The notes: generated by a model not told the origin, from the sequence alone. A stretch of 64,000 nt of DNA from Escherichia coli (GCF_046105845.1 NZ_CP151004.1); one strand, 5' to 3'; shown: positions 28,277 to 64,000, numbered from the stretch's first letter. A program made the numbers and translations.

Positions 28277-30772
28277 ATGCTAACGATTCAATTTCTCTGT
28301 CCTTTGCCTAACGGTCTGCATGCTCGTCCGGCGTGGGAACTTAAAGAACAGTGCAGCCAGTGGCAAAGCGAAATCACCTTCATCAACCATCGCCAGAACG
28401 CAAAGGCAGATGCCAAAAGCTCGCTGGCGCTGATTGGCACTGGCACTTTATTTAATGACAGTTGCAGCCTGAACATTAGCGGCAGCGATGAAGAGCAGGC
28501 GCGGCGCGTGCTGGAAGAGTACATCCAGGTGCGCTTTATCGACAGCGACAGCATTCAGCCGACGCAGGCAGAACTGACGGCGCATCCGCTGCCGCGTTCA
28601 TTAAGCCGTCTGAATCCTGATTTACTGTACGGCAATGTGCTGGCAAGCGGCGTCGGCGTGGGTACGCTGACCCTGTTACAGAGCGACAGCCTCGACAGTT
28701 ATCGGGCCATCCCGGCCAGTGCGCAAGACTCCACCCGGCTGGAGCACAGCCTGGCAACGCTTGCCGAGCAACTGAACCAGCAGCTGCGTGAGCGTGACGG
28801 CGAAAGCAAAACTATCCTCAGCGCCCATTTGTCGCTGATTCAGGATGATGAATTTGCAGGCAATATCCGTCGCCTTATGGCAGAACAGCATCAGGGGCTG
28901 GGGGCGGCGATCATCAGCAATATGGAGCAGGTTTGCGCCAAACTATCTGCTTCTGCCAGCGATTATCTGCGCGAGCGGGTCAGCGACATTCGCGATATCA
29001 GCGAACAGTTGCTGCATATCACCTGGCCGGAACTGAAGCCGCGCAACAATCTGGTGCTGGAAAAACCGACTATTCTGGTGGCCGAGGATTTAACCCCAAG
29101 CCAGTTTTTGAGCCTCGATTTAAAAAATCTTGCGGGCATGATTCTGGAGAAAACCGGGCGCACCTCGCATACCCTGATTCTGGCCCGTGCCTCGGCGATC
29201 CCGGTACTGAGTGGCTTGCCGCTGGATGCGATCGCGCGCTATGCCGGGCAACCGGCAGTGCTTGACGCCCAGTGCGGCGTGCTGGCGATTAACCCTGATG
29301 ACGCGGTGAGCGGTTATTATCAGGTCGCGCAGACGCTGGCGGATAAACGCCAAAAACAACAGGCGCAGGCCGCCGCGCAGCTGGCCTATTCCCGTGATAA
29401 CAAGCGTATTGATATTGCGGCGAATATCGGCACCGCTCTGGAAGCGCCAGGCGCGTTTGCCAACGGCGCGGAAGGTGTTGGGCTGTTCCGTACTGAAATG
29501 CTCTATATGGATCGCGACAGCGCGCCGGACGAGCAGGAGCAATTTGAAGCCTACCAGCAGGTGCTACTGGCGGCGGGCGACAAGCCGATTATCTTCCGCA
29601 CGATGGACATCGGCGGCGATAAAAGCATTCCTTATCTGAATATTCCCCAGGAAGAGAACCCGTTCCTCGGCTATCGCGCGGTACGTATTTACCCGGAATT
29701 TGCGGGCCTGTTCCGCACTCAACTGCGGGCCATTTTGCGCGCCGCCAGTTTCGGCAACGCCCAGTTGATGATCCCAATGGTTCACAGCCTCGATCAGATC
29801 TTATGGGTGAAGGGCGAGATCCAAAAAGCGATCGTTGAGCTTAAGCGCGATGGCCTGCGTCATGCAGAGACGATTACGCTGGGTATCATGGTGGAAGTGC
29901 CGTCGGTGTGCTACATCATCGATCACTTCTGCGATGAGGTAGATTTCTTCAGTATCGGCTCCAACGATATGACCCAGTATCTGTATGCGGTCGATCGTAA
30001 TAACCCGCGCGTATCGCCGCTGTATAACCCGATTACGCCATCGTTCCTGCGCATGTTGCAGCAGATTATTACCACTGCGCATCAGCGGGGTAAATGGGTA
30101 GGCATTTGCGGTGAACTGGGCGGTGAAAGCCGTTATCTGCCGCTACTGCTTGGGCTGGGCCTGGACGAGTTAAGTATGAGTAGCCCGCGCATTCCGGCGG
30201 TGAAAAGCCAGCTTCGTCAACTGGATAGCGAGGCGTGTCGGGAACTGGCGCGTCAGGCATGTGAATGCCGCAGCGCGCAGGAAATTGAAGCGTTACTCAC
30301 CGCCTTTACGCCGGAAGAAGACGTTCGCCCACTGCTGGCGCTGGAGAATATCTTTGTTGATCAGTCCTTTAGCAATAAAGAGCAGGCGATCCAGTTCCTG
30401 TGCGGTAACCTCGGCGTTAACGGGCGCACTGAACATCCGTTCGAGCTGGAAGAGGATGTCTGGCAGCGGGAAGAGATTGTTACCACCGGCGTTGGTTTTG
30501 GCGTAGCGATCCCGCACACCAAATCTCAGTGGATCCGTCATTCCAGTATCAGCATTGCCCGGCTGGTGAAACCGGTTGACTGGCAGTCAGAAATGGGCGA
30601 AGTCGAACTGGTGATCATGCTGACACTGGGCGCTAACGAAGGGATGAATCATGTGAAAGTCTTCTCGCAGCTGGCGCGTAAACTGGTGAATAAAAACTTC
30701 CGCCAGTCGCTGTTCGCCGCGCAAGATGCGCAAAGCATCCTGACGCTGCTGGAAACGGAATTAACCTTCTGA
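28277..30772 (+). CDS. fryA: Multiphosphoryl transfer protein (HPr-like, enzyme I-like and EIIA-like domains fused)
   Basis: 831 aa; N-terminal HPr-like segment (LPNGLHARPA), central EI-homology sharing motifs with ptsI in this window, C-terminal EIIA-Fru-like domain. Confidence 0.9.
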   Translation: MLTIQFLCPLPNGLHARPAWELKEQCSQWQSEITFINHRQNAKADAKSSLALIGTGTLFNDSCSLNISGSDEEQARRVLEEYIQVRFIDSDSIQPTQAELTAHPLPRSLSRLNPDLLYGNVLASGVGVGTLTLLQSDSLDSYRAIPASAQDSTRLEHSLATLAEQLNQQLRERDGESKTILSAHLSLIQDDEFAGNIRRLMAEQHQGLGAAIISNMEQVCAKLSASASDYLRERVSDIRDISEQLLHITWPELKPRNNLVLEKPTILVAEDLTPSQFLSLDLKNLAGMILEKTGRTSHTLILARASAIPVLSGLPLDAIARYAGQPAVLDAQCGVLAINPDDAVSGYYQVAQTLADKRQKQQAQAAAQLAYSRDNKRIDIAANIGTALEAPGAFANGAEGVGLFRTEMLYMDRDSAPDEQEQFEAYQQVLLAAGDKPIIFRTMDIGGDKSIPYLNIPQEENPFLGYRAVRIYPEFAGLFRTQLRAILRAASFGNAQLMIPMVHSLDQILWVKGEIQKAIVELKRDGLRHAETITLGIMVEVPSVCYIIDHFCDEVDFFSIGSNDMTQYLYAVDRNNPRVSPLYNPITPSFLRMLQQIITTAHQRGKWVGICGELGGESRYLPLLLGLGLDELSMSSPRIPAVKSQLRQLDSEACRELARQACECRSAQEIEALLTAFTPEEDVRPLLALENIFVDQSFSNKEQAIQFLCGNLGVNGRTEHPFELEEDVWQREEIVTTGVGFGVAIPHTKSQWIRHSSISIARLVKPVDWQSEMGEVELVIMLTLGANEGMNHVKVFSQLARKLVNKNFRQSLFAAQDAQSILTLLETELTF

Positions 30773-55037: not shown

Positions 55038-56471
55038 TTAACCCAGTTGCCAGAGTGCTCCATGTTGCAGCACAGCCACTCCGTGGGAGGCATAGAGCGA
55101 CAGTTCCCGTTCTTCTGGCTGCGGATAGATTCGGCTACTCATCACCGTTTCCCCGTCGTTAATAAATACTTCCACGGATGATGTATCGATAAATATCCTT
55201 AGGGCGAGCGTGTCACCCTGCGGGAGGGGAATACTACGGTAGCCGTCTAAATTCTCGTGTGGGTAATATCGCCACAAAACAAGTCGCTCAGATTGGTTAT
55301 CAATATACAGCCGCATTCCAGTGCCGAGCTGTAATCCGTAATGTTCGGCATCACTGTTCTTCAGCGCCCACTGCAACTGAATCTCAACTGCTTGCGCGTT
55401 TTCCTGCAAAACATATTTATTGCTGATTGTGCGGGGAGAGATAGATTGATGCTGCTGGCGTAACGACTCAGCTTCGTGTACCGGGCGTTGTAGGAGTTTG
55501 CCATTGCTCTCTGATAGCTCGCGCGCCAGCGTCATGCAGCCTGCCCAGCCTTCACGTTTTGAGGGCATTGGCGATTCCCACATATCCATCCAGCCGATAA
55601 CAATACGCCGACCATCCTTCGCTACAAAGCTTTGTGGTGCATAAAAGTCATGCCCGTTATCAAGTTCAGTAAAATGCCCGGATTGTGCAAAAAGTCGTCC
55701 AGGCGACCAAATTCCGGGTATTACGCCACTTTGAAAGCGATTTCGATAACTGTATCCCTCGGCATTCATTCCCTGCGGGGAAAACATCAGATAATGCTGA
55801 TCGCCAAGGCTGAAAAAGTCCGGACATTCCCACATATAGCTTTCACCCGCATCAGCGTGGGCCAGTACGCGATCGAAAGTCCATTCACGCAATGAACTGC
55901 CGCGATAAAGCAGGATCTGCCCCGTGTTGCCTGGGTCTTTCGCCCCGACTACCATCCACCATGTGTCGGCTTCACGCCACACTTTAGGATCGCGGAAGTG
56001 CATGATGCCTTCTGGTGGAGTGAGGATCACACCCTGTTTCTCGAAATGAATACCATCCCGACTGGTAGCCAGACATTGTACTTCGCGAATTGCATCGTCA
56101 TTACCTGCACCATCGAGCCAGACGTGTCCGGTGTAGATAAGTGAGAGGACACCATTGTCATCGACAGCACTACCTGAAAAACACCCGTCTTTGTCATTCT
56201 CGTCTCCTGGCGCTAGCGCAATAGGCTCATGCTGCCAGTGGATCATATCGTCGCTGGTGGCATGTCCCCAGTGCATTGGCCCCCAGTGTTCGCTCATCGG
56301 GTGATGTTGATAAAACGCGTGATAACGATCGTTAAACCAGATCAGGCCGTTTGGATCGTTCATCCACCCGGCAGGAGGCGCGAGGTGAAAATGGGGATAG
56401 AAAGTGTTACCTCGGCGCTCGTGAAGTTTTGCTAGTGCGTTTTGCGCCGCATGTAATCGAGATTGCGTCAT
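55038..56471 (-). CDS. cscA: Sucrose-6-phosphate hydrolase / invertase (glycoside hydrolase family 32)
   Basis: GH32 motifs WMNDPNGL, FRDP and WECPD in the translation. Confidence 0.9.
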   Translation of the reverse strand: MTQSRLHAAQNALAKLHERRGNTFYPHFHLAPPAGWMNDPNGLIWFNDRYHAFYQHHPMSEHWGPMHWGHATSDDMIHWQHEPIALAPGDENDKDGCFSGSAVDDNGVLSLIYTGHVWLDGAGNDDAIREVQCLATSRDGIHFEKQGVILTPPEGIMHFRDPKVWREADTWWMVVGAKDPGNTGQILLYRGSSLREWTFDRVLAHADAGESYMWECPDFFSLGDQHYLMFSPQGMNAEGYSYRNRFQSGVIPGIWSPGRLFAQSGHFTELDNGHDFYAPQSFVAKDGRRIVIGWMDMWESPMPSKREGWAGCMTLARELSESNGKLLQRPVHEAESLRQQHQSISPRTISNKYVLQENAQAVEIQLQWALKNSDAEHYGLQLGTGMRLYIDNQSERLVLWRYYPHENLDGYRSIPLPQGDTLALRIFIDTSSVEVFINDGETVMSSRIYPQPEERELSLYASHGVAVLQHGALWQLG

Positions 56472-56504
56472 TTTTATCATCCTGGTTAAGCAAACTTGGT
56501 GAAT

Positions 56505-56517
56505 TGTTAACGTTAAC
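56505..56517. promoter_or_regulatory. Candidate CscR operator O1 (palindrome TGTTAACGTTAAC) upstream of cscA
   Basis: Self-complementary GTTAACGTTAAC core with central CG, typical of LacI-family operators. Confidence 0.5.
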
Positions 56518-56568
56518 CTTTATAAAAATAAAGTCCCTTGCTTTCATAAATGCGATGAATATCACAAA

Positions 56569-56581
56569 TGTTAACGTTAAC
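56569..56581. promoter_or_regulatory. Candidate CscR operator O2 (second exact copy of TGTTAACGTTAAC) upstream of cscK
   Basis: Identical 13-mer 64 bp from O1 within the divergent cscA/cscK control region. Confidence 0.5.
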
Positions 56582-56686
56582 TATGACGTTTTGTGATCGA
56601 ATATGCATGTTTTAGTAAATCCATGACGATTTTGCGAAAAAGAGGTTTATCACTATGCGTAAGTCAGATGAATTTAAGGGAAAAAA

Positions 56687-57610
56687 ATGTCAGCCAAAGT
56701 ATGGGTTTTAGGGGATGCGGTCGTAGATCTCTTGCCAGAATCAGACGGGCGGCTACTGCCTTGTCCTGGCGGTGCGCCAGCTAACGTTGCGGTGGGAATC
56801 GCCAGATTAGGCGGAATAAGTGGGTTTATAGGTCGGGTGGGGGATGATCCTTTTGGTGCGTTAATGCAAAGAACGCTGCTAACTGAGGGTGTCGATATCA
56901 CGTATCTGAAGCAAGATGAATGGCACCGGACATCCACGGTGCTTGTCGATCTGAACGATCAAGGAGAACGTTCATTTACGTTTATGGTCCGCCCCAGTGC
57001 CGATCTTTTTTTAGAGACGACAGACTTGCCCTGCTGGCGACATGGCGAATGGTTACATCTCTGTTCAATTGCGTTGTCTGCCGAGCCTTCGCGTACCAGC
57101 GCATTTACAGCGATGACGGCGATCCGGCATGCCGGAGGTTTTGTCAGCTTCGATCCCAATATTCGTGAAGATCTATGGCAAGACGAGCATTTGCTCCGCT
57201 TGTGTTTGCGGCAGGCGCTACAACTGGCGGATGTCGTCAAGCTCTCGGAAGAAGAATGGCGACTTATCAGTGGAAAAACACAGAACGATCGGGATATATG
57301 CGCCCTGGCAAAAGAGTATGAGATCGCCATGCTGTTGGTGACTAAAGGTGCAGAAGGGGTGGTGGTCTGTTATCGAGGACAAGTTCACCATTTTGCTGGA
57401 ATGTCTGTGAATTGTGTCGATAGCACGGGGGCGGGAGATGCGTTCGTTGCCGGGTTACTCACAGGTCTGTCCTCTACGGGATTATCTACAGATGAAAGAG
57501 AAATGCGACAAATTATCGATCTCGCTCAACGTTGCGGAGCGCTTGCAGTAACAGCGAAAGGGGCAATGACAGCGCTGCCATGTCGACAAGAACTGGAAAG
57601 TGAGAAGTAA
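56687..57610 (+). CDS. cscK: Fructokinase (PfkB/ribokinase family)
   Basis: 307-aa ORF with PfkB signatures (GGAPANVAVGIARLGG and DSTGAGDAFVAGLL). Confidence 0.9.
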   Translation: MSAKVWVLGDAVVDLLPESDGRLLPCPGGAPANVAVGIARLGGISGFIGRVGDDPFGALMQRTLLTEGVDITYLKQDEWHRTSTVLVDLNDQGERSFTFMVRPSADLFLETTDLPCWRHGEWLHLCSIALSAEPSRTSAFTAMTAIRHAGGFVSFDPNIREDLWQDEHLLRLCLRQALQLADVVKLSEEEWRLISGKTQNDRDICALAKEYEIAMLLVTKGAEGVVVCYRGQVHHFAGMSVNCVDSTGAGDAFVAGLLTGLSSTGLSTDEREMRQIIDLAQRCGALAVTAKGAMTALPCRQELESEK

Positions 57611-57671
57611 ACGGCGAGGCCGCTCTTATCTCTAAATAGGACATGAATTTTTTAACGACAGGCAGGTAATT

Positions 57672-58919
57672 ATGGCACTGAATATTCCATTCAGAAATGC
57701 GTACTATCGTTTTGCATCCAGTTACTCATTTCTCTTTTTTATTTCCTGGTCGCTGTGGTGGTCGTTATACGCTATTTGGCTGAAAGGACATCTAGGATTA
57801 ACAGGGACTGAATTAGGTACACTTTATTCGGTCAACCAGTTTACCAGCATTCTATTTATGATGTTCTACGGCATCGTTCAGGATAAACTCGGTCTGAAGA
57901 AACCGCTCATCTGGTGTATGAGTTTCATTCTGGTCTTGACCGGACCGTTTATGATTTACGTTTATGAACCGTTACTGCAAAGCAATTTTTCTGTAGGTCT
58001 AATTCTGGGGGCGCTCTTTTTTGGCCTGGGGTATCTGGCGGGATGCGGTTTGCTTGACAGCTTCACTGAAAAAATGGCGCGAAATTTTCATTTCGAATAT
58101 GGAACAGCGCGCGCCTGGGGATCTTTTGGCTATGCTATTGGCGCGTTCTTTGCCGGTATATTTTTTAGTATCAGTCCCCATATCAACTTCTGGTTGGTCT
58201 CGCTATTTGGCGCTGTATTTATGATGATCAACATGCGTTTTAAAGATAAGGATCACCAGTGCATAGCGGCGGATGCGGGAGGGGTAAAAAAAGAGGATTT
58301 TATCGCAGTTTTCAAGGATCGAAACTTCTGGGTTTTTGTCATATTTATTGTGGGGACGTGGTCTTTCTATAACATTTTTGATCAACAACTCTTTCCTGTC
58401 TTTTATGCAGGTTTATTCGAATCACACGATGTAGGAACGCGCCTGTATGGTTATCTCAACTCATTCCAGGTGGTACTCGAAGCGCTGTGCATGGCGATTA
58501 TTCCTTTCTTTGTGAATCGGGTAGGGCCAAAAAATGCATTACTTATCGGTGTTGTGATTATGGCGTTGCGTATCCTTTCCTGCGCGCTGTTCGTTAACCC
58601 CTGGATTATTTCATTAGTGAAGCTGTTACATGCCATTGAGGTTCCACTTTGTGTCATATCCGTCTTCAAATACAGCGTGGCAAACTTTGATAAGCGCCTG
58701 TCGTCGACGATCTTTCTGATTGGTTTTCAAATTGCCAGTTCGCTTGGGATTGTGCTGCTTTCAACGCCGACTGGGATACTCTTTGACCACGCAGGCTACC
58801 AGACAGTTTTCTTCGCAATTTCGGGTATTGTCTGCCTGATGTTGCTATTTGGCATTTTCTTCTTGAGTAAAAAACGCGAGCAAATAGTTATGGAAACGCC
58901 TGTACCTTCAGCAATATAG
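57672..58919 (+). CDS. cscB: Sucrose:H+ symporter (LacY-like oligosaccharide:H+ symporter, MFS)
   Basis: 415-aa 12-TM MFS ORF downstream of cscK. Confidence 0.85.
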   Translation: MALNIPFRNAYYRFASSYSFLFFISWSLWWSLYAIWLKGHLGLTGTELGTLYSVNQFTSILFMMFYGIVQDKLGLKKPLIWCMSFILVLTGPFMIYVYEPLLQSNFSVGLILGALFFGLGYLAGCGLLDSFTEKMARNFHFEYGTARAWGSFGYAIGAFFAGIFFSISPHINFWLVSLFGAVFMMINMRFKDKDHQCIAADAGGVKKEDFIAVFKDRNFWVFVIFIVGTWSFYNIFDQQLFPVFYAGLFESHDVGTRLYGYLNSFQVVLEALCMAIIPFFVNRVGPKNALLIGVVIMALRILSCALFVNPWIISLVKLLHAIEVPLCVISVFKYSVANFDKRLSSTIFLIGFQIASSLGIVLLSTPTGILFDHAGYQTVFFAISGIVCLMLLFGIFFLSKKREQIVMETPVPSAI

Positions 58920-59360: not shown

Positions 59361-59375
59361 TGGTGTCCCCTGCAG
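59361..59375 (-). other. Prophage attachment-site core (attR): 15-nt copy of the 3' end of tRNA-Arg argW
   Basis: Minus strand reads CTGCAGGGGACACCA, identical to the 3' terminus of argW as I recall it; directly flanks torI as at the K-12 KplE1 attR. Confidence 0.6.
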
Positions 59376-59448
59376 ACATCTACTTGACGCGGCAGGGGAT
59401 TGATTGGAATGGTGTTTTTTGGATGTGAGAAATATTTTACCCGCTATT

Positions 59449-59649
59449 TTACCCATTGGCGCGGCTTAAGAGCTTATTTTTGAATTCACAATGGTCACGA
59501 TATAACCATCTTGCTCGCCCGTGGATAACTTTAGCTTTTGGCAGGTCGCCGGACTTAATCCGGTCATAGATGAAGGTTTTACCGAAGCCAGTATCGGCCA
59601 TGATGAATTTCAAATCAACCAGTGAATCAGGTTGTAGTTCGTGTTGCAT
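59449..59649 (-). CDS. torI: Excisionase / recombination directionality factor TorI (start taken at MQHELQPDSL)
   Basis: 66-aa translation MQHELQPDSLVDLKFIMADTGFGKTFIYDRIKSGDLPKAKVIHGRARWLYRDHCEFKNKLLSRANG recognised as TorI; winged-helix Xis-like. Confidence 0.8.
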   Translation of the reverse strand: MQHELQPDSLVDLKFIMADTGFGKTFIYDRIKSGDLPKAKVIHGRARWLYRDHCEFKNKLLSRANG

Positions 59650-59668
59650 GAGTGCTATCTCCAAATAG

Positions 59669-59684
59669 GGAATCGAACCTGCAA
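59669..59684 (-). other. 16-nt sequence identical to the argW T-arm segment immediately preceding the att core, separated from the core by torI
   Basis: Minus strand TTGCAGGTTCGATTCC; with the 59361-59375 core it reconstitutes the last 30 nt of argW. Confidence 0.45.
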
Positions 59685-59706
59685 ATCAGGCAATAAAAAA
59701 CCGCCA

Positions 59707-59874
59707 TCAGGCGGCTTGATGTTCTTTCAGTTCTTCAATTCGAATATTGGTTACGTCTGCATGTGCTATCTGCGCCCATATCATCCAGTGGTCATAGCAG
59801 TCGTTGATGTTCTCTGCTTCGATAACTCTGTTGAATGGTTCTCCATTCCATTCACCTGTGACTCGGAAGTGCAT
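59707..59874 (-). CDS. Small prophage ORF (55 aa), hypothetical
   Basis: ATG-initiated ORF MHFRVTGEWNGEPFNRVIEAENINDCYDHWMIWAQIAHADVTNIRIEELKEHQAA followed on the minus strand by a GC hairpin and T-run. Confidence 0.35.
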   Translation of the reverse strand: MHFRVTGEWNGEPFNRVIEAENINDCYDHWMIWAQIAHADVTNIRIEELKEHQAA

Positions 59875-59962
59875 TTATCATCTCCATAAAACAAAACCCT
59901 CCGTAGCGAGTTCAGATAAAAGAAATCCCCGCGAATGCGAGGATTGTTATGTAATATTTGGT

Positions 59963-60244
59963 TTAATCATCTATATGTTTTGTACAGAGAGGGCAAGTAT
60001 CGTTTCCACCGTACTCGTGATAATAATTTTGCACGGTAGCAGTCATTTCTCGCACATTGCAGAATGGGGATTTGTCTTCATTAGACTTATAAACCTTCAT
60101 GGAATATTTGTATGCCGACTCTATATCTATACCTTCATCTACATAAACACCTTCGTGATGTCTGCATGGAGACAAGACACCGGATCTGCACAACATTGAT
60201 AACGCCCAATCTTTTTGCTCAGACTCTAACTCATTGATACTCAT
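59963..60244 (-). CDS. Cys/His-rich hypothetical prophage protein (93 aa)
   Basis: ORF containing CRSGVLSPCRHH and CPLCTKH motifs; ea-region position. Confidence 0.45.
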   Translation of the reverse strand: MSINELESEQKDWALSMLCRSGVLSPCRHHEGVYVDEGIDIESAYKYSMKVYKSNEDKSPFCNVREMTATVQNYYHEYGGNDTCPLCTKHIDD

Positions 60245-60446
60245 TTATAAACTCCTTGCAATGTATGTCGTTTCAGCTAAACGGTATCAGCAATGTTTAT
60301 GTAAAGAAACAGTAAGATAATACTCAACCCGATGTTTGAGTACGGTCATCATCTGACACTACAGACTCTGGCATCGCTGTGAAGACGACGCGAAATTCAG
60401 CATTTTCACAAGCGTTATTTTTTACAAACCCGTATTCCTGCTCATA

Positions 60447-61070
60447 TCACTCTCCTTTGATGCGAATACCAGCAGTGCGCTCGGCTTCACTTTGTTCCCA
60501 AAACCACTTGTGAAGCTCCATAAGCTTTTCGTCAATCGGTGCATATTTGCGATTAAAGTAGGCCTGAGCATCTTTCTCAGATTCGTCCGGCAATTCGCCT
60601 GGGCCAAACAGTGTGTTATAAATCCATGCCAGTCCGCTTTTAGCGTCGCCAGTTGCCTGCCATTCGATAATCGCAGCCTGCATGACCAGAATGTTTTTCC
60701 CGATTAACAGGTCCAGTTCTTTGAACCGGTTGCGGATGTATGCATTCTCGCTTTGTAATTTTGCGTTGCGCTTCTCTGCGGCTTCCAGCTCAACACGCAG
60801 TTTCCCTACCGCTAGCGCAATTTCCTCGTTCTCCTGGTCGCGGCGTTTGATGTATTGCTGGTTTCTTTCCCGTTCATCCAGTAGTGCCAGCACGGTTTCT
60901 GGTCCGGCCAGAAATTTGAAGGCGTTGAGCGCATCAATATCCACACCGTAATCTTTAAGTTCCTGTTCACTTAACAAATCATCATCAGCTGGCAACATTA
61001 ACAGGCGTTCCATTGCTGGAATTGCACGTTCCGCCACCTCACGCAGTGCCTGGTAATTAATTTCGCTCAC
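60447..61070 (-). CDS. Lambdoid prophage ea-region protein, possibly Ea22-like (coiled-coil)
   Basis: 207-aa [27 protein letters not shown]... with central heptad-rich segment; start overlaps the upstream ORF stop (ATGA). Confidence 0.5.
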   Translation of the reverse strand: MSEINYQALREVAERAIPAMERLLMLPADDDLLSEQELKDYGVDIDALNAFKFLAGPETVLALLDERERNQQYIKRRDQENEEIALAVGKLRVELEAAEKRNAKLQSENAYIRNRFKELDLLIGKNILVMQAAIIEWQATGDAKSGLAWIYNTLFGPGELPDESEKDAQAYFNRKYAPIDEKLMELHKWFWEQSEAERTAGIRIKGE

Positions 61071-61516
61071 TGGTTGCCTCCTTTGCGAAGCTGGGCAGCA
61101 AAGTCACGGATAGTGTCATCAAGGTCTGGGCACAACAGATGGTCAGCAAACATCTCTACCCCCTGCGCCCGTACTTCAGCCAGGAAAGCATCGGTGGTTG
61201 GGGTTTCAGTAACATCATCTTCCCATTCGCCAAACTCCTCACGACAAAAGTCATTAAATTCCTTCTCAGATTGCTTAAGCGAGGTATTTTCTGCAGCCAT
61301 CTTCGCGCATTTAGCCTCAAGGTTATCAATCGTGATTCCAGCAGAACGACACTCCCGCAACGCCGTTTCCAGTTTTGATTCAAGCTCACCGAACTTACGC
61401 ACCAGATATTCAGCGTTTGTTTCGTTAACCTTTAAATCTCGTGGAAAGCATTTACCTTTCAGAAAACCATCCATCTCAATTAGTGACATTAGTTTCATTT
61501 CTTCCCACTCCGCCAC
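61067..61516 (-). CDS. Lambdoid prophage ea-region protein (coiled-coil, acidic), hypothetical
   Basis: 149-aa ORF translationally coupled to the downstream 207-aa ORF. Confidence 0.45.
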
Positions 61517-61655
61517 ATAGCATTCAGATATTTGTTGTCATTAACAGAACCGAAACTATTTCTCTTAAGTAATTCCTCTCTCGATGGCATTGGCTTTACG
61601 CGTTGGCGAATAATCATTTCTGCCGGAAGAATGCCGGGATTGTATGCAAGTCCTC

Positions 61656-61946
61656 TCATGATTTACTCTCCACGAACTGGTCAACAGCCATGCTAAGTGA
61701 CACACCTAAAGTCTCGATATGTTGCTGAATATCCTGTAGCGTCTGCGCCTGAGATAACAGGATTTCACGGTTGCATAACTCTTTAGCCAGATGCTCAAAC
61801 TTGCTGTAATAACCGATACGACTTAGTGTTTCTTTGCCTGCATTCTCGCCTTCTTTGATAATTCCTCTTTCGCTAAGAATCAGATCGTGTTTGGTTCCGG
61901 TAATAACGTATTTTCCGAGGTCGATGTTTAGCTTCATTGTTTTCAT
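61656..61946 (-). CDS. Hypothetical prophage protein (96 aa; start moved to [13 protein letters not shown], which has a GAGGA RBS)
   Basis: The track ORF N-terminus overlaps the upstream gene and looks out-of-frame; internal ATG has a strong RBS. Confidence 0.4.
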
Positions 61947-61956
61947 TGTTAATTCC

Positions 61957-62253
61957 TCAGTCATTACTGATAGCGCCATAGCGTGAGCGGTAATTACGCA
62001 GGCGCGGGTCGATATATTCAGGGAAGTGGGTATATGTGGCTTTGCGGAATGGTCGGATTGATGTCTGGTAAATTCGCTCGCGTTCTTCTTTCTCTGCAAG
62101 CCATATACAATGGCGAAATTCCTTTTCCTCTTTCGTTTCCTGCGGTAGCGACATTATCCGGTCGTAGTTTTTCCTGAATTTATCCAGCACCTCCGATACG
62201 GAATTGCCGGAACAGCGGCGCGGGTCATCCGCACCATACAGAGGCGCTGGCAT
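61957..62253 (-). CDS. Hypothetical prophage protein (98 aa) just downstream of the Erf/SSB-like pair; Abc-like anti-RecBCD role is speculative
   Basis: Charged 98-aa ORF MPAPLYGADDPRRCSGNSVSEVLDKFRKNYDRIM...; occupies the position where P22-type operons carry abc genes. Confidence 0.35.
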   Translation of the reverse strand: MPAPLYGADDPRRCSGNSVSEVLDKFRKNYDRIMSLPQETKEEKEFRHCIWLAEKEERERIYQTSIRPFRKATYTHFPEYIDPRLRNYRSRYGAISND

Positions 62254-62276: not shown

Positions 62277-62660
62277 TTAGAAGGGAATTGAATCGTCGTA
62301 TTCAGGATGATTTTGATGATTGCTACTTTGTTGCTGTTGGCTGTTTCCTGAAGTTGCAAATCCAATCTTTGCATTCAGTAATTCAAGAGTGATTGATTGA
62401 CCATTTTGCCCCTGATAAACATCAACCCTGATGTTTTCTCCGGTAATTTCTACAATGCCACCTTCAACAAGAACACTACGGTAGTAATCCGCTTGCGCTC
62501 CCGGCTTGGCAAATACAACGGCGCTGTAGTTTGTCCATTCTTTCTTTTTTGTCTGGCGATCGTAATACTGAACGCCAGCACGGATGTTGAATCCGATATT
62601 TTCCCCGGCCTGAAACTCTCTTGCGGGCTTGTTTAGTCTTACAGTAATCGAATGTGCCAT
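62277..62660 (-). CDS. SSB-like single-strand DNA-binding protein with SSB-type acidic C-terminal tip (start taken at MAHSITVRLNK)
   Basis: 127-aa ORF ending ...QQQQSSNHQNHPEYDDSIPF (compare SSB C-terminus DDDIPF); ATG overlaps the erf stop (TAATG). Confidence 0.55.
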   Translation of the reverse strand: MAHSITVRLNKPAREFQAGENIGFNIRAGVQYYDRQTKKKEWTNYSAVVFAKPGAQADYYRSVLVEGGIVEITGENIRVDVYQGQNGQSITLELLNAKIGFATSGNSQQQQSSNHQNHPEYDDSIPF

Positions 62661-63265
62661 TAAGCAGCCGCTCCTTCTAATTCGTCTCGTCTGATGTTGT
62701 AAACGTCCTGCGCTTTGTGCTGCTCCGGTGTGCCTTCGAGCATCTTCCACGCTTTGGCGAACGCCTGTTTAAGCTCTTCTACGGTGTTTTTCTGCAATGC
62801 TGCGTCAGTGAATGCTTTTAGAACCTGTTCAGATGTAGGTGATGGTTTTGATTGCTTTGCTGCTGCGTTCTGCTGATGTTTATGCTCGTCGGTATCTGCA
62901 TCTTTCGCATCATCAATGCCGAACAAACCATTGAGGCAATACTTGCGTGCATAAGAGCTTGTAGCTCCAGTAACTTGTGCAGAATCCATTCCTTTCTTGC
63001 TTTCTTCCTCTCGTGCAAGGGCGGTTGCTGTATGACTGTTTTCGCCATCAGTAATAGTTGCTGTTGCTTTCACGTAATACCGATCACCAATCAACACAAC
63101 TTCATCGCTGATTGATAAAAACAGGCCATTCAGTAACGGCTTAACGCCTTCAAGAATGTCTTCGCAGCTTCTGTATTTATATTTACCGAATGAGTTGTAC
63201 TGATTCTTTGGCGCGTTCAGATTCTCCTGAATGGCTGCCAGTCTTGCGTAAAATTCTTTGCTCAT
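62660..63265 (-). CDS. erf: Erf-family single-strand annealing recombinase (start taken at MSKEFYARLAAIQ)
   Basis: Translation MSKEFYARLAAIQENLNAPKNQYNSFGKYKYRSCEDILEGVKPLL... recognised as phage P22 Erf-like. Confidence 0.8.
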   Translation of the reverse strand: MSKEFYARLAAIQENLNAPKNQYNSFGKYKYRSCEDILEGVKPLLNGLFLSISDEVVLIGDRYYVKATATITDGENSHTATALAREEESKKGMDSAQVTGATSSYARKYCLNGLFGIDDAKDADTDEHKHQQNAAAKQSKPSPTSEQVLKAFTDAALQKNTVEELKQAFAKAWKMLEGTPEQHKAQDVYNIRRDELEGAAA

Positions 63266-63275
63266 ATGTTTGTTC

Positions 63276-63446
63276 TCAGAATGGACACGGCCCAAGGAAA
63301 TAACGCTGATTTAATACTTCGACTCGGGACAAATTAAGGCATACCCGCATTCCTTCGCGGTCACCATTATGGCGATACCAGAGAGCTTTCTGCGTGTACA
63401 TGCGTCTCTGTAACTTGCTCTCCTTCACTGTGGTTGCAAGTGACAT
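63276..63446 (-). CDS. Small prophage ORF (56 aa) immediately upstream of erf (Arf-position), hypothetical
   Basis: ATG with AGGAG RBS 6 nt upstream; MSLATTVKESKLQRRMYTQKALWYRHNGDREGMRVCLNLSRVEVLNQRYFLGPCPF; stop 10 nt before the erf start. Confidence 0.4.
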   Translation of the reverse strand: MSLATTVKESKLQRRMYTQKALWYRHNGDREGMRVCLNLSRVEVLNQRYFLGPCPF

Positions 63447-63525
63447 GAATATCTCCTTCGTTACCGATTAAATCTTTCATCTGACGAATGAATTCTTCGT
63501 CTGACCAGTTATCTGTAAAACTCAT
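63367..63525 (-). CDS. Small prophage ORF (52 aa, acidic; kil-position), overlaps the 56-aa ORF in another frame
   Basis: MSFTDNWSDEEFIRQMKDLIGNEGDIHVTCNHSEGEQVTETHVHAESSLVSP; weak RBS spacing; at most one of the two overlapping frames is likely expressed. Confidence 0.25.
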   Translation of the reverse strand: MSFTDNWSDEEFIRQMKDLIGNEGDIHVTCNHSEGEQVTETHVHAESSLVSP

Positions 63526-63658
63526 TTCCTGCGATACCACGGAAGGTTGATAGCTGATTTCATCGCTTTATTTGCTTCAAGCCACATTTTGGAATCACCA
63601 ATAAATCTGGCTATTACTGCTTTGTTTTGTGCCGCACGAAGCATCTGGTGATTAATGG

Positions 63659-63793
63659 CTATTTCATTTCGCATAACGCCTCCAGTTGTTTCTTTGCTGC
63701 TCTGATTAATTGTTTAACTCGGCGTGATAATTCAGATTCGTGCGGGTAGAAAGCGGACATGACGCCGCTACCCGCGAGCTGAAAGTGCATCAT
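63659..63793 (-). CDS. Small cIII-like protein (43 aa; candidate FtsH-inhibitor type)
   Basis: ATG ATG with AAGGAG RBS; MMHFQLAGSGVMSAFYPHESELSRRVKQLIRAAKKQLEALCEMK, with an amphipathic helix resembling the lambda CIII core. Confidence 0.4.
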   Translation of the reverse strand: MMHFQLAGSGVMSAFYPHESELSRRVKQLIRAAKKQLEALCEMK

Positions 63794-63857
63794 GGGTAAC
63801 TCCTTATATTTGATTGCATAACGAAAACGCCTCAAGTGAAGCGTTATTGGTATGCAT

Positions 63858-63883
63858 ATAAAAAAGCCCTCACACTGGAGGGC
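63858..63883 (-). terminator. Rho-independent terminator in the prophage leftward operon (tL1-like position upstream of the cIII-like gene)
   Basis: Hairpin gccctc-acactg-gagggc followed on the minus strand by a T-run. Confidence 0.5.
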
Positions 63884-64000
63884 AAAGAAGATTTCCAATA
63901 ATCAGAACAAGTCGTCTCCTGTTTAGTTACGAGCGACATTGCTCCGTGTATTCACTCGTTGTAATGAATACACAGTGCAGTGTTTATTCTGTTGTTTATG

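Follow-up and report, generated by a model that had tools for sequence, protein, structure and literature searches.

The structure of the Abc2 protein of phage P22 on its target, the host enzyme RecBCD, has been solved by cryo-electron microscopy, and the residues modelled in it, 3-66, form the helices that contact RecC (Wilkinson et al., PMC9836394). The activities of isolated RecBCD are hardly changed by Abc2, which recruits the host protein PpiB via P68, a residue that enters the active site of PpiB (PMC9836394). Abc2 is compatible with Murphy's model, according to which the hijacked RecBCD makes single-stranded DNA onto which the annealing protein of the phage, and not RecA, is loaded, and phages with Abc2 are typically without an exonuclease of their own (PMC9836394). 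Here, we describe an abc2 gene together with relatives of several further phage genes in the interval from 59963 to 62253 (minus strand) of a 64,000-nucleotide stretch of Escherichia coli DNA (GCF_046105845.1 NZ_CP151004.1), which we refer to, at its full length, as the window.

For other genes of the interval, the closest described relatives are those of phage lambda. Ea22 of lambda is a coiled-coil tetramer that favours lysogeny, and it belongs to a mosaic family (PMC10834534, PMC7093339), whose members have the N-terminus and coiled coil in common but differ in their acidic C-terminal domains, which can be exchanged (Goddard et al. 2024). Ea8.5 has been grouped with the pro-lytic genes of the exo-xis region and with cell-cycle synchronisation, and yeast two-hybrid contacts have been reported for it, for instance with MinE, though no firm mechanism has emerged (PMC8614690, PMC7093339). 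For Orf55, there is a speculative model only, in which it resembles T7 Gp2 and binds RNA polymerase (PMC8614690, PMC7093339).

Gene content and setting of the interval

The interval very probably belongs to a prophage at argW that resembles Sf6, HK620 and CUS-3 (P22 family), in which it forms the distal end of the early operon transcribed leftwards, and it is made up of interchangeable cassettes that all carry names. It runs from the final base of the stop codon of ea8.5 (59963) to the first base of the abc2 ATG (62253), and these outer coordinates had been set exactly by a sequence-only reading of the window, which listed five genes here. All five are genuine and lie on the minus strand, but the interval holds six minus-strand genes, because a 54-amino-acid gene of the DUF2737 family (61495-61659) had been missed. 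The genes had also been called uncharacterised, with nothing assignable from sequence alone; instead, all of them fall into named genes or families, and the RefSeq annotation of near-identical DNA carries the same gene names. They differ in how far they have been characterised: abc2 is known biochemically and structurally, ea8.5 and ea22 are named lambda genes with published structures and phenotypes, and the remaining three (EaE-like, DUF5405-type and DUF2737) represent named families without an assigned function. An assignment of all five to known functions had been named as an outcome that would overturn the reading, and what was found is an identity for each of them and a function for abc2 only, with ea22 and ea8.5 in between. 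The description of the block as phage accessory genes was correct: they belong to the accessory genes of a lambdoid early-left operon.

The pairwise ratio of non-synonymous to synonymous substitution rates (dN/dS, Nei-Gojobori method), determined against phage homologues, is below 1 for all genes, which argues that they are real genes rather than chance open reading frames (ORFs). The ORFs are intact and of full length when compared to Pfam and PHROG profiles, and translational coupling by overlaps (TAATG, ATGA, ATGA and GTGA) as well as Shine-Dalgarno sites can be read directly from the sequence. In the order of the minus strand, the genes are erf, an SSB-like gene (for single-stranded DNA-binding protein), abc2, the DUF5405-type gene, the DUF2737 gene, the EaE-like gene, ea22, a spacer, ea8.5, orf55 and torI/xis, followed by attR, an order that is syntenic with Sf6, HK633, P22 and E. 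coli strain AR_0118.

The end of the prophage lies close by. At 59361-59375, the sequence TGGTGTCCCCTGCAG, a partial 3′ end of the tRNA-Arg gene argW, matches 15 of the 16 bases of the annotated attP core of Sf6, and homology to Sf6, HK633 and phiv205-1 stops abruptly at 59361. Since this core match coincides with the end of homology and a search with ARAGORN found no whole tRNA at the junction, we regard 59361-59375 as an attR-type junction, and the prophage thus comprises everything to the right of it up to the end of the window. Next to the junction lies torI (59449-59649, minus strand), an excisionase gene whose product of 66 amino acids is 100% identical to TorI of Sf6, HK633 and AR_0118. 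There is no integrase beside it, which is normal for elements of the Sf6/HK620/KplE1 type, where attP is located between xis and int. On the other side, that of the bacterial chromosome, the prophage end is adjoined by what we take, from the translations, to be a sucrose (csc) cluster at 55038-58919, presumably consisting of an invertase (55038-56480, minus strand), a fructokinase (56687-57610, plus strand) and a permease (57672-58919, plus strand).

How the block was put together can be seen from its distribution. Pieces of it are present in 3712 of 5426 complete E. coli genomes, yet none of the 5426, and no phage record, contains 80% or more of the stretch at one site. From 59400 to 61941, the DNA matches that of strain AR_0118 at 99.9% identity; AR_0118 then carries a RecT/Gp157 module in place of erf, the SSB-like gene and abc2. 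The switch at 61941 falls exactly on the junction of abc2 and the DUF5405-type gene, and such a joint at a gene boundary is typical of recombination. As a combination, the genes are new, while each of the parts was already known.

The genes and their families

The 98-amino-acid protein encoded by 61957-62253 (minus strand, with an AAGGA Shine-Dalgarno site) had been remarked on because of its location where P22-type operons carry their abc genes, and this positional guess was borne out by matches to a Pfam family and to a solved structure. It matches Pfam PF11043 (Anti-RecBCD_p2) with 206.8 bits (cut-off 25; E-value 4e-62), residues 1-98 aligning with positions 1-97 of the profile, and PHROG 656 ("abc2 anti-RecBCD") with 7.8e-57. 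To the P22 Abc2 chains of PDB entries 8B1T and 8B1U, it is approximately 90% identical (phmmer, 1.4e-56 for 8B1T). Within residues 1-66, L32R and A65S are the sole changes relative to P22, and P68 is kept; the dN/dS of the gene is 0.0-0.11. We thus identify the protein as anti-RecBCD protein 2, Abc2, and predict that it binds RecC and alters RecBCD.

Directly upstream of abc2 lie the SSB-like gene and erf, such that an Erf-type annealing partner is present, and no exo or recE gene was found in the visible operon, nor in the homologous operons of HK633 and phiv205-1. The erf recombinase gene occupies 62660-63265 (minus strand; Pfam ERF, 1.9e-44), and its product is 75% identical to P22 Erf. The SSB-like gene (62277-62660, minus strand; 127 amino acids; PHROG 44, 1e-29) overlaps the stop codon of erf by TAATG; its start is most likely this ATG at 62660 and not the GTG of a 157-amino-acid version. 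Its product is 99% identical to HK633 gp35, is of the HK97 gp40 type, and ends in the tail DDSIPF, similar to the acidic tip with which bacterial SSB binds its partners; the dN/dS of the gene is 0.05.

The DUF5405-type gene (61656-61946, minus strand) encodes 96 amino acids from an ATG at 61946 that is preceded at 7 nt by a GAGGA Shine-Dalgarno site; an alternative start at 61937 would give 93 amino acids. The sequence-only reading had suspected that a longer predicted N-terminus was an artefact, and the short form is indeed the right one, as judged from the GAGGA site, from homologues that start with MK(TMK)LNI, and from the fact that the 147-amino-acid ORF overlaps abc2 out of frame. The protein is 95% identical to Sf6 gp24 and matches PHROG 154 with 2.6e-31. 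Against P2 Orf83, it shows 33% identity from end to end, over 92% of the length (tblastn, 2e-8). An alignment of 20 DUF5405 sequences, P2 included, contains nine invariant columns, PF17399 is found precomputed on homologues that are 70-96% identical to the protein, and the dN/dS of the gene is 0.21. On these grounds, the protein is assigned to the DUF5405 type, as a homologue of Sf6 gp24 and P2 Orf83. An AlphaFold2 model computed from the 20-sequence alignment (predicted local distance difference test score, pLDDT, of 90) has four antiparallel strands followed by two helices. In the PDB, Foldseek found no convincing solved structure for it (best E-value 0.27), while DUF5405 models in BFVD match at template modelling (TM) scores of 0.76-0.84. 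The same fold recurs in BFVD in many uncharacterised phage proteins, the hosts being Salmonella, Morganella, Bacillus, Lactobacillus and Cellulophaga, and the model thus suggests a small fold that is widespread among phages.

Three other identities that could be attached to this protein were examined. PHROG 154 bears the label "replication initiation protein", for which no support was found; P2 Orf81 and Orf83 both carry this label, apparently by virtue of their proximity to gene A. The protein is not P22 Abc1 either, because P22 abc1 sits between erf and abc2, whereas the 96-amino-acid protein corresponds to Sf6 gp24 and P2 Orf83. Finally, the anti-Avs "ORF83" described in 10.1101/2025.06.06.658234 is an unrelated gene that happens to bear the same number as P2 Orf83.

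The small gene that had been overlooked overlaps both of its neighbours by ATGA. Its 54-amino-acid product matches Pfam PF10930 over the full length (103.8 bits, cut-off 25; 4e-30), is 74% identical to P22 Orf56 and is the counterpart of HK97 gp38, Sf6 gp23 and HK620 HkaI. The gene has a dN/dS of 0.17-0.26 and is annotated in the identical DNA of strain AR_0118. DUF2737 usually follows abc2, but in AR_0118 it stands in an operon with RecT/Gp157 and without abc2, and it is therefore not strictly tied to Abc2.

Downstream of it lies the EaE-like gene (61067-61498, minus strand). It had been given as 149 amino acids, from a GTG at 61516; more likely, it encodes 143 amino acids from the ATG at 61498, because this ATG forms the ATGA overlap with the DUF2737 gene, is the start annotated by PGAP in AR_0118, and because nearly all homologues begin with MKQM or MKLM. 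The protein matches PHROG 614 with 1.1e-58, and no Pfam family exists for it. With P22 EaE, it shares 51% identity over 87 amino acids, all in the C-terminal part of EaE (BLASTP, 8e-22); its identity is 57% to HK97 gp37, 80% to HK633 gp32 and 95% to its counterpart in phage N7, and the order DUF2737 followed by EaE is common to P22, HK97, HK633 and the present locus. We thus place it as a relative of EaE and HK97 gp37. A proposal that it corresponds to P22 EaF, the partner of EaD, was rejected (E-value 0.034). The family is large, with more than 7,600 protein clusters matching the protein; among the 120 matches listed, none has a functional name.

In the alignment of EaE-like proteins, the head, a 17-residue motif and the tail LRKGGNQ are conserved; coiled-coil inserts may be present between head and motif, and a variable cassette separates the motif from the tail. 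The codons of the tail include the ribosome-binding site of the ea22 gene. The dN/dS is 0.30-0.47. An AlphaFold2 model is all-helical with a pLDDT of 52, which is too low for a fold search, and would be compatible with an oligomeric coiled coil. As an aside, one database protein (P0078, 197 amino acids, a single-member cluster) joins DUF2737 to the EaE-like protein through a frame encoding VAEWEEM. This is the same extension that gives rise to the 149-amino-acid version, and P0078 may be the product of a sequencing frameshift.

The next gene, at 60447-61070 (minus strand), encodes 207 amino acids from a GTG start that has an AGGAGG Shine-Dalgarno site 6 nt upstream and a GTGA overlap with the stop codon of the EaE-like gene, and the earlier statement that these two genes are translationally coupled is thus correct. 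Both had been described as possibly Ea22-like, which applies to the 207-amino-acid protein (PF13935, Ead_Ea22: 107.3 bits, cut-off 27, 1.3e-30, residues 2-109) but not to the EaE-like one. The N-terminus (MSEIN) and coiled coil are 54% identical to residues 1-78 of lambda Ea22, P22 EaD matches a segment of 40 amino acids at 78% identity, and for the C-terminal part of approximately 105 amino acids the identity to ST933Wp09 of 933W and VT2-Sakai is 97%. The dN/dS lies between 0.42 and 0.52. This architecture matches the one that Goddard et al. 2024 describe for Ea22. The C-terminal domain of lambda Ea22 has been solved as a dimer by nuclear magnetic resonance, but the present protein gave no PDB sequence match at an E-value of 0.1 or below, and the alignment to lambda Ea22 ends at residue 101, beyond which the protein is of the 933W type. 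Because variable C-terminal domains are documented for the family, membership in it stands, though not in the lambda subtype. Of the variants in Goddard et al. 2024, the domain probably represents "V1", since the other variant in 933W is the one with DUF551.

A further match of this domain calls for caution. The PADLOC model PDLC02890 ("DpdH", 127 positions) matches 97 of its residues with 9e-37 (60447-60782, residues 96-207). We reject a role as a component of Dpd defence, because the gene resides in a prophage early operon without dpd genes and because true DpdH/DpdI proteins are BrxC-like. Among the best 120 homologues of the domain, all are ead/Ea22-like or hypothetical proteins with three single exceptions ("prophage protein", "enterohemolysin 2" and "DUF550 domain-containing"). 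The match thus most likely stems from a contaminated sub-model and is a database artefact; a PADLOC scan of seven other proteins returned no matches.

Between ea22 and ea8.5 lies a non-coding spacer of 202 nt (60245-60446, minus strand). It is nearly identical to lambda 29656-29846, save for an 11-nt indel and two substitutions in the first approximately 25 nt by the ea22 stop codon. A search for an RNA element or promoter in it gave no Rfam match, a fold z-score of -0.05 and no sigma-70-like promoter on the minus strand. The lambda-like DNA extends further, from about 59690 to 60470, where it is approximately 98% identical to lambda 29.1-29.87 kb, including the spacer and two terminator-like hairpins.

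Within this segment, the gene at 59963-60244 (minus strand) is lambda ea8.5 itself: its product is identical to lambda Ea8.5 in 92 of 93 residues, matches Pfam PF20735 with 161.7 bits (cut-off 27) and PDB entry 2M7A with 2.9e-17, and the alignments with 2M7A and 2M7B cover it from end to end. These two structures represent a hybrid homeodomain/zinc-finger fold (Kwan et al. 2013). The Cys/His motifs of the protein had been taken to suggest zinc binding, and this fares well for the family and for part of the residues: C27, H30, C84 and C87 align with Cys or His in 2M7A, and the first three of them also in 2M7B, while C19 and H29 of the motifs are not conserved. From this conservation, C27, H30, C84 and C87 would be the zinc ligands, in a C-H-C-C arrangement.

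Outside the interval, between ea8.5 and torI, orf55 (59707-59874, minus strand; PHROG 676) encodes a protein that is identical to lambda Orf55 (lambdap35) in 55 of 55 residues, and the gene differs from that of lambda by 5 synonymous and 0 non-synonymous substitutions. It is flanked by the two hairpins, both detected on the minus strand by a consensus scan and conserved in lambda. One (59924-59945) directly follows ea8.5 and has a 9-bp stem and then the T-run TCTTTTAT, and the other (59698-59717) overlaps the orf55 stop codon with an 8-bp GC-rich stem followed by TTTATT.

On the opposite strand, four of five sizeable ORFs have no PHROG match, and none of the four that were scanned against Pfam matched a family. 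The exception is an ORF of 89 amino acids at 60682-60951 (plus strand) opposite the conserved coiled-coil segment of Ea22, which matches phrog_13760 with 1e-21. Probably, this ORF shadows the conserved DNA for the Ea22 coiled coil and was annotated as a gene in certain phage genomes. At the far side of the block, upstream of erf, lie ORFs at 63276-63898 (minus strand), one of which, to our reckoning, resembles a Kil-type protein (ARFIGDSKMW), which presumably fits a lambdoid kil/cIII segment.

Proposed role of the block and alternative readings

If the interval is the distal end of an early-left operon, it would be transcribed as the distal part of the PL transcript after infection or induction, and N-type antitermination would enable RNA polymerase to read through the two hairpins flanking orf55. 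This step is proposed because the homologous annotated operons run from PL, N and nutL to xis. Abc2, Erf and the SSB-like protein would then form a unit for recombination and RecBCD takeover, in which Abc2 makes RecBCD, otherwise destructive to phage DNA ends, a resection machine that feeds Erf and SSB. Ea22, Ea8.5 and Orf55 would modulate the lysis-lysogeny decision and host physiology, and the DUF5405-type, DUF2737 and EaE-like proteins may be non-essential accessory proteins with an effect on the DNA metabolism of host or phage or on competing elements. That at least one of these three is a partner in the Erf/SSB/Abc2 takeover or a counter-defence factor seems conceivable to us, though unlikely.

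Some observations speak against parts of this picture. The window ends at 64000 and shows neither a promoter nor a nut site nor an N gene, such that the PL part is derived from homologous phages only, and the two terminator-like hairpins inside the block could limit the expression of orf55 and torI. The Pfam score of the DUF5405-type protein with PF17399 (19.7 bits, E-value 0.0012) is slightly under the cut-off of 21.6. Furthermore, an experimental function for DUF5405, DUF2737 or EaE-like proteins was not found in the literature under their various names, including Orf83 and HkaI.

Other readings of the same DNA have to be weighed against this. The EaE-like and ea22 ORFs overlap by 4 nt, and PHROG 368, 492 and 14548 suggest that some phages encode both modules in one polypeptide, so one may ask whether the two ORFs are the frameshift-broken halves of a single Ea22-type gene and hence a pseudogene. 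We regard this as extremely improbable. The two-gene layout with its 4-nt overlap is also found in HK633/HK620 and in AR_0118, and eaE and eaD are separate genes in P22. The GTG start of the 207-amino-acid protein is preceded by a strong AGGAGG Shine-Dalgarno site, and the first residues of the protein, MSEIN, are the canonical start of Ea22 that lambda also has. Moreover, both ORFs are under purifying selection, and a fused example was not encountered among the sampled homologues. The two proteins are not paralogues either, as their pairwise E-value of 0.018 reflects weak coiled-coil noise, and the three PHROG profiles match them in different parts, which are consecutive for 14548 only. Shared profiles without significant pairwise similarity thus point to one pool of shuffled coiled-coil modules, and not to a split gene. 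A decay of the entire prophage, with ORFs that are no longer expressed or functional, could be suspected from the fact that the integrase is not beside torI and that only one prophage end lies within the window. This, too, is very improbable, since excisionase and integrase at opposite ends are the normal layout for Sf6, HK620 and KplE1, the ORFs are intact, of full length, coupled and have a dN/dS below 1, and the DNA is 96-99% identical to that of the functional phages lambda, HK633, phiv205-1 and CUS-3.

A different matter is whether a new function in anti-defence or superinfection exclusion is hidden in the DUF5405-type, DUF2737 or EaE-like protein or in the C-terminal domain of Ea22, a proposal prompted by the sequence-only reading that is compatible with the operon assignment. 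The accessory region is highly mosaic and adjoins a known counter-defence gene, abc2, and accessory regions containing abc2 have yielded triggers of defence, such as P22 Abc1 (10.1101/2023.04.06.535777). In addition, both the EaE and the Ea22 family are modular, their cassettes being exchangeable, the dN/dS of these genes (0.3-0.5) exceeds that of the recombination genes, and there is the "DpdH" match of the Ea22 C-terminal domain. As discussed above, however, this match most likely is an artefact, and the PADLOC scan of the other proteins was blank. Homology to any characterised anti-defence protein was not found, and neither the PDB nor BFVD provided a functional lead from the DUF5405 fold. 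We therefore consider such a function unlikely, and we retain the assignment of the block to the distal early-left operon, with which it would in any case agree.

Significance and comparison with known systems

The value of this analysis lies mainly in correct annotation: the five seemingly dark genes turn out to be textbook cassettes of P22, lambda, 933W and Sf6 that have been joined by recombination. It also illustrates that a positional guess made without tools, the one concerning abc2, can be right. A prophage at argW that encodes Abc2, predicted to hijack RecBCD, is of relevance for recombineering, for defence systems sensing the inhibition of RecBCD, and for the host range of phages. The role of DUF5405, DUF2737 and EaE, in turn, is a question for hundreds or thousands of prophages, and not for this locus alone.

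Compared to known systems, the backbone is closest to that of Sf6 (gp28 to gp18), HK620, HK633 and CUS-3, with which it shares erf, ssb, abc2, gp24, gp23, an Ea22-like gene, a TorI-type xis and attP. The likeness to Sf6 includes the argW-derived att core and an identical TorI. The cassettes between DUF2737 and xis are different: where the present locus has the EaE-like gene and the lambda-type ea8.5 and orf55, Sf6 carries gp22, gp20 (Lar-like) and gp19.

With P22, the locus shares an Abc2 of the same length class (98 amino acids here, 97 in P22) that is encoded downstream of erf without an exonuclease gene, but the last 20 residues contain several substitutions and one extra residue. The P22 order erf-abc1-abc2 is altered here by an SSB-like gene of the HK97 gp40 type in the slot of abc1, and the SSB-like protein displays no similarity to P22 Abc1. 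P22 EaE is related to the 143-amino-acid protein in its C-terminal part, whereas its N-terminal part is unrelated. In P2, Orf83 is encoded in the early operon directly before the replication gene A, and not after a recombination module. DUF5405 adjoins genes of DNA metabolism in three unrelated backbones, following abc2 in the Sf6 type and RecT/Gp157 in AR_0118 and preceding the replication nickase gene A in P2, and this position is the hint that it may take part in the takeover or in counter-defence.

For Ea22, two relatives each share a part of the protein. Lambda Ea22 has the N-terminus and coiled coil in common with it, at the 54% identity given above, while the present protein has an insert of 23 amino acids and another C-terminal domain. 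The Ea22-like protein of 933W shares the Ead_Ea22 N-terminal region and shows an overall identity of 64% with gaps, but it is longer (257 as opposed to 207 amino acids), as approximately 50 residues of a segment specific to Shiga toxin (Stx) phages are absent here.

Lambda's exo-xis region has the same order of ea22, gap, ea8.5, orf55 and excisionase gene. However, lambda employs its own Xis where the present locus has the TorI type, and lambda orf60a, orf63, orf61 and orf73 are absent here. Lambda-type ea8.5 (at least 95% identity) is present in 245 of the 5426 complete E. coli genomes and in 25 phage records, most of which are lambda derivatives, and a review calls it exclusive to lambda, but here and in AR_0118 it resides on prophage backbones other than that of lambda. 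Its presence on a P22-family backbone, given that the phage records with it are mostly lambda derivatives, therefore argues for mosaic exchange, by which ea8.5 and orf55, usually called lambda-specific, travel here in the company of P22-family genes.

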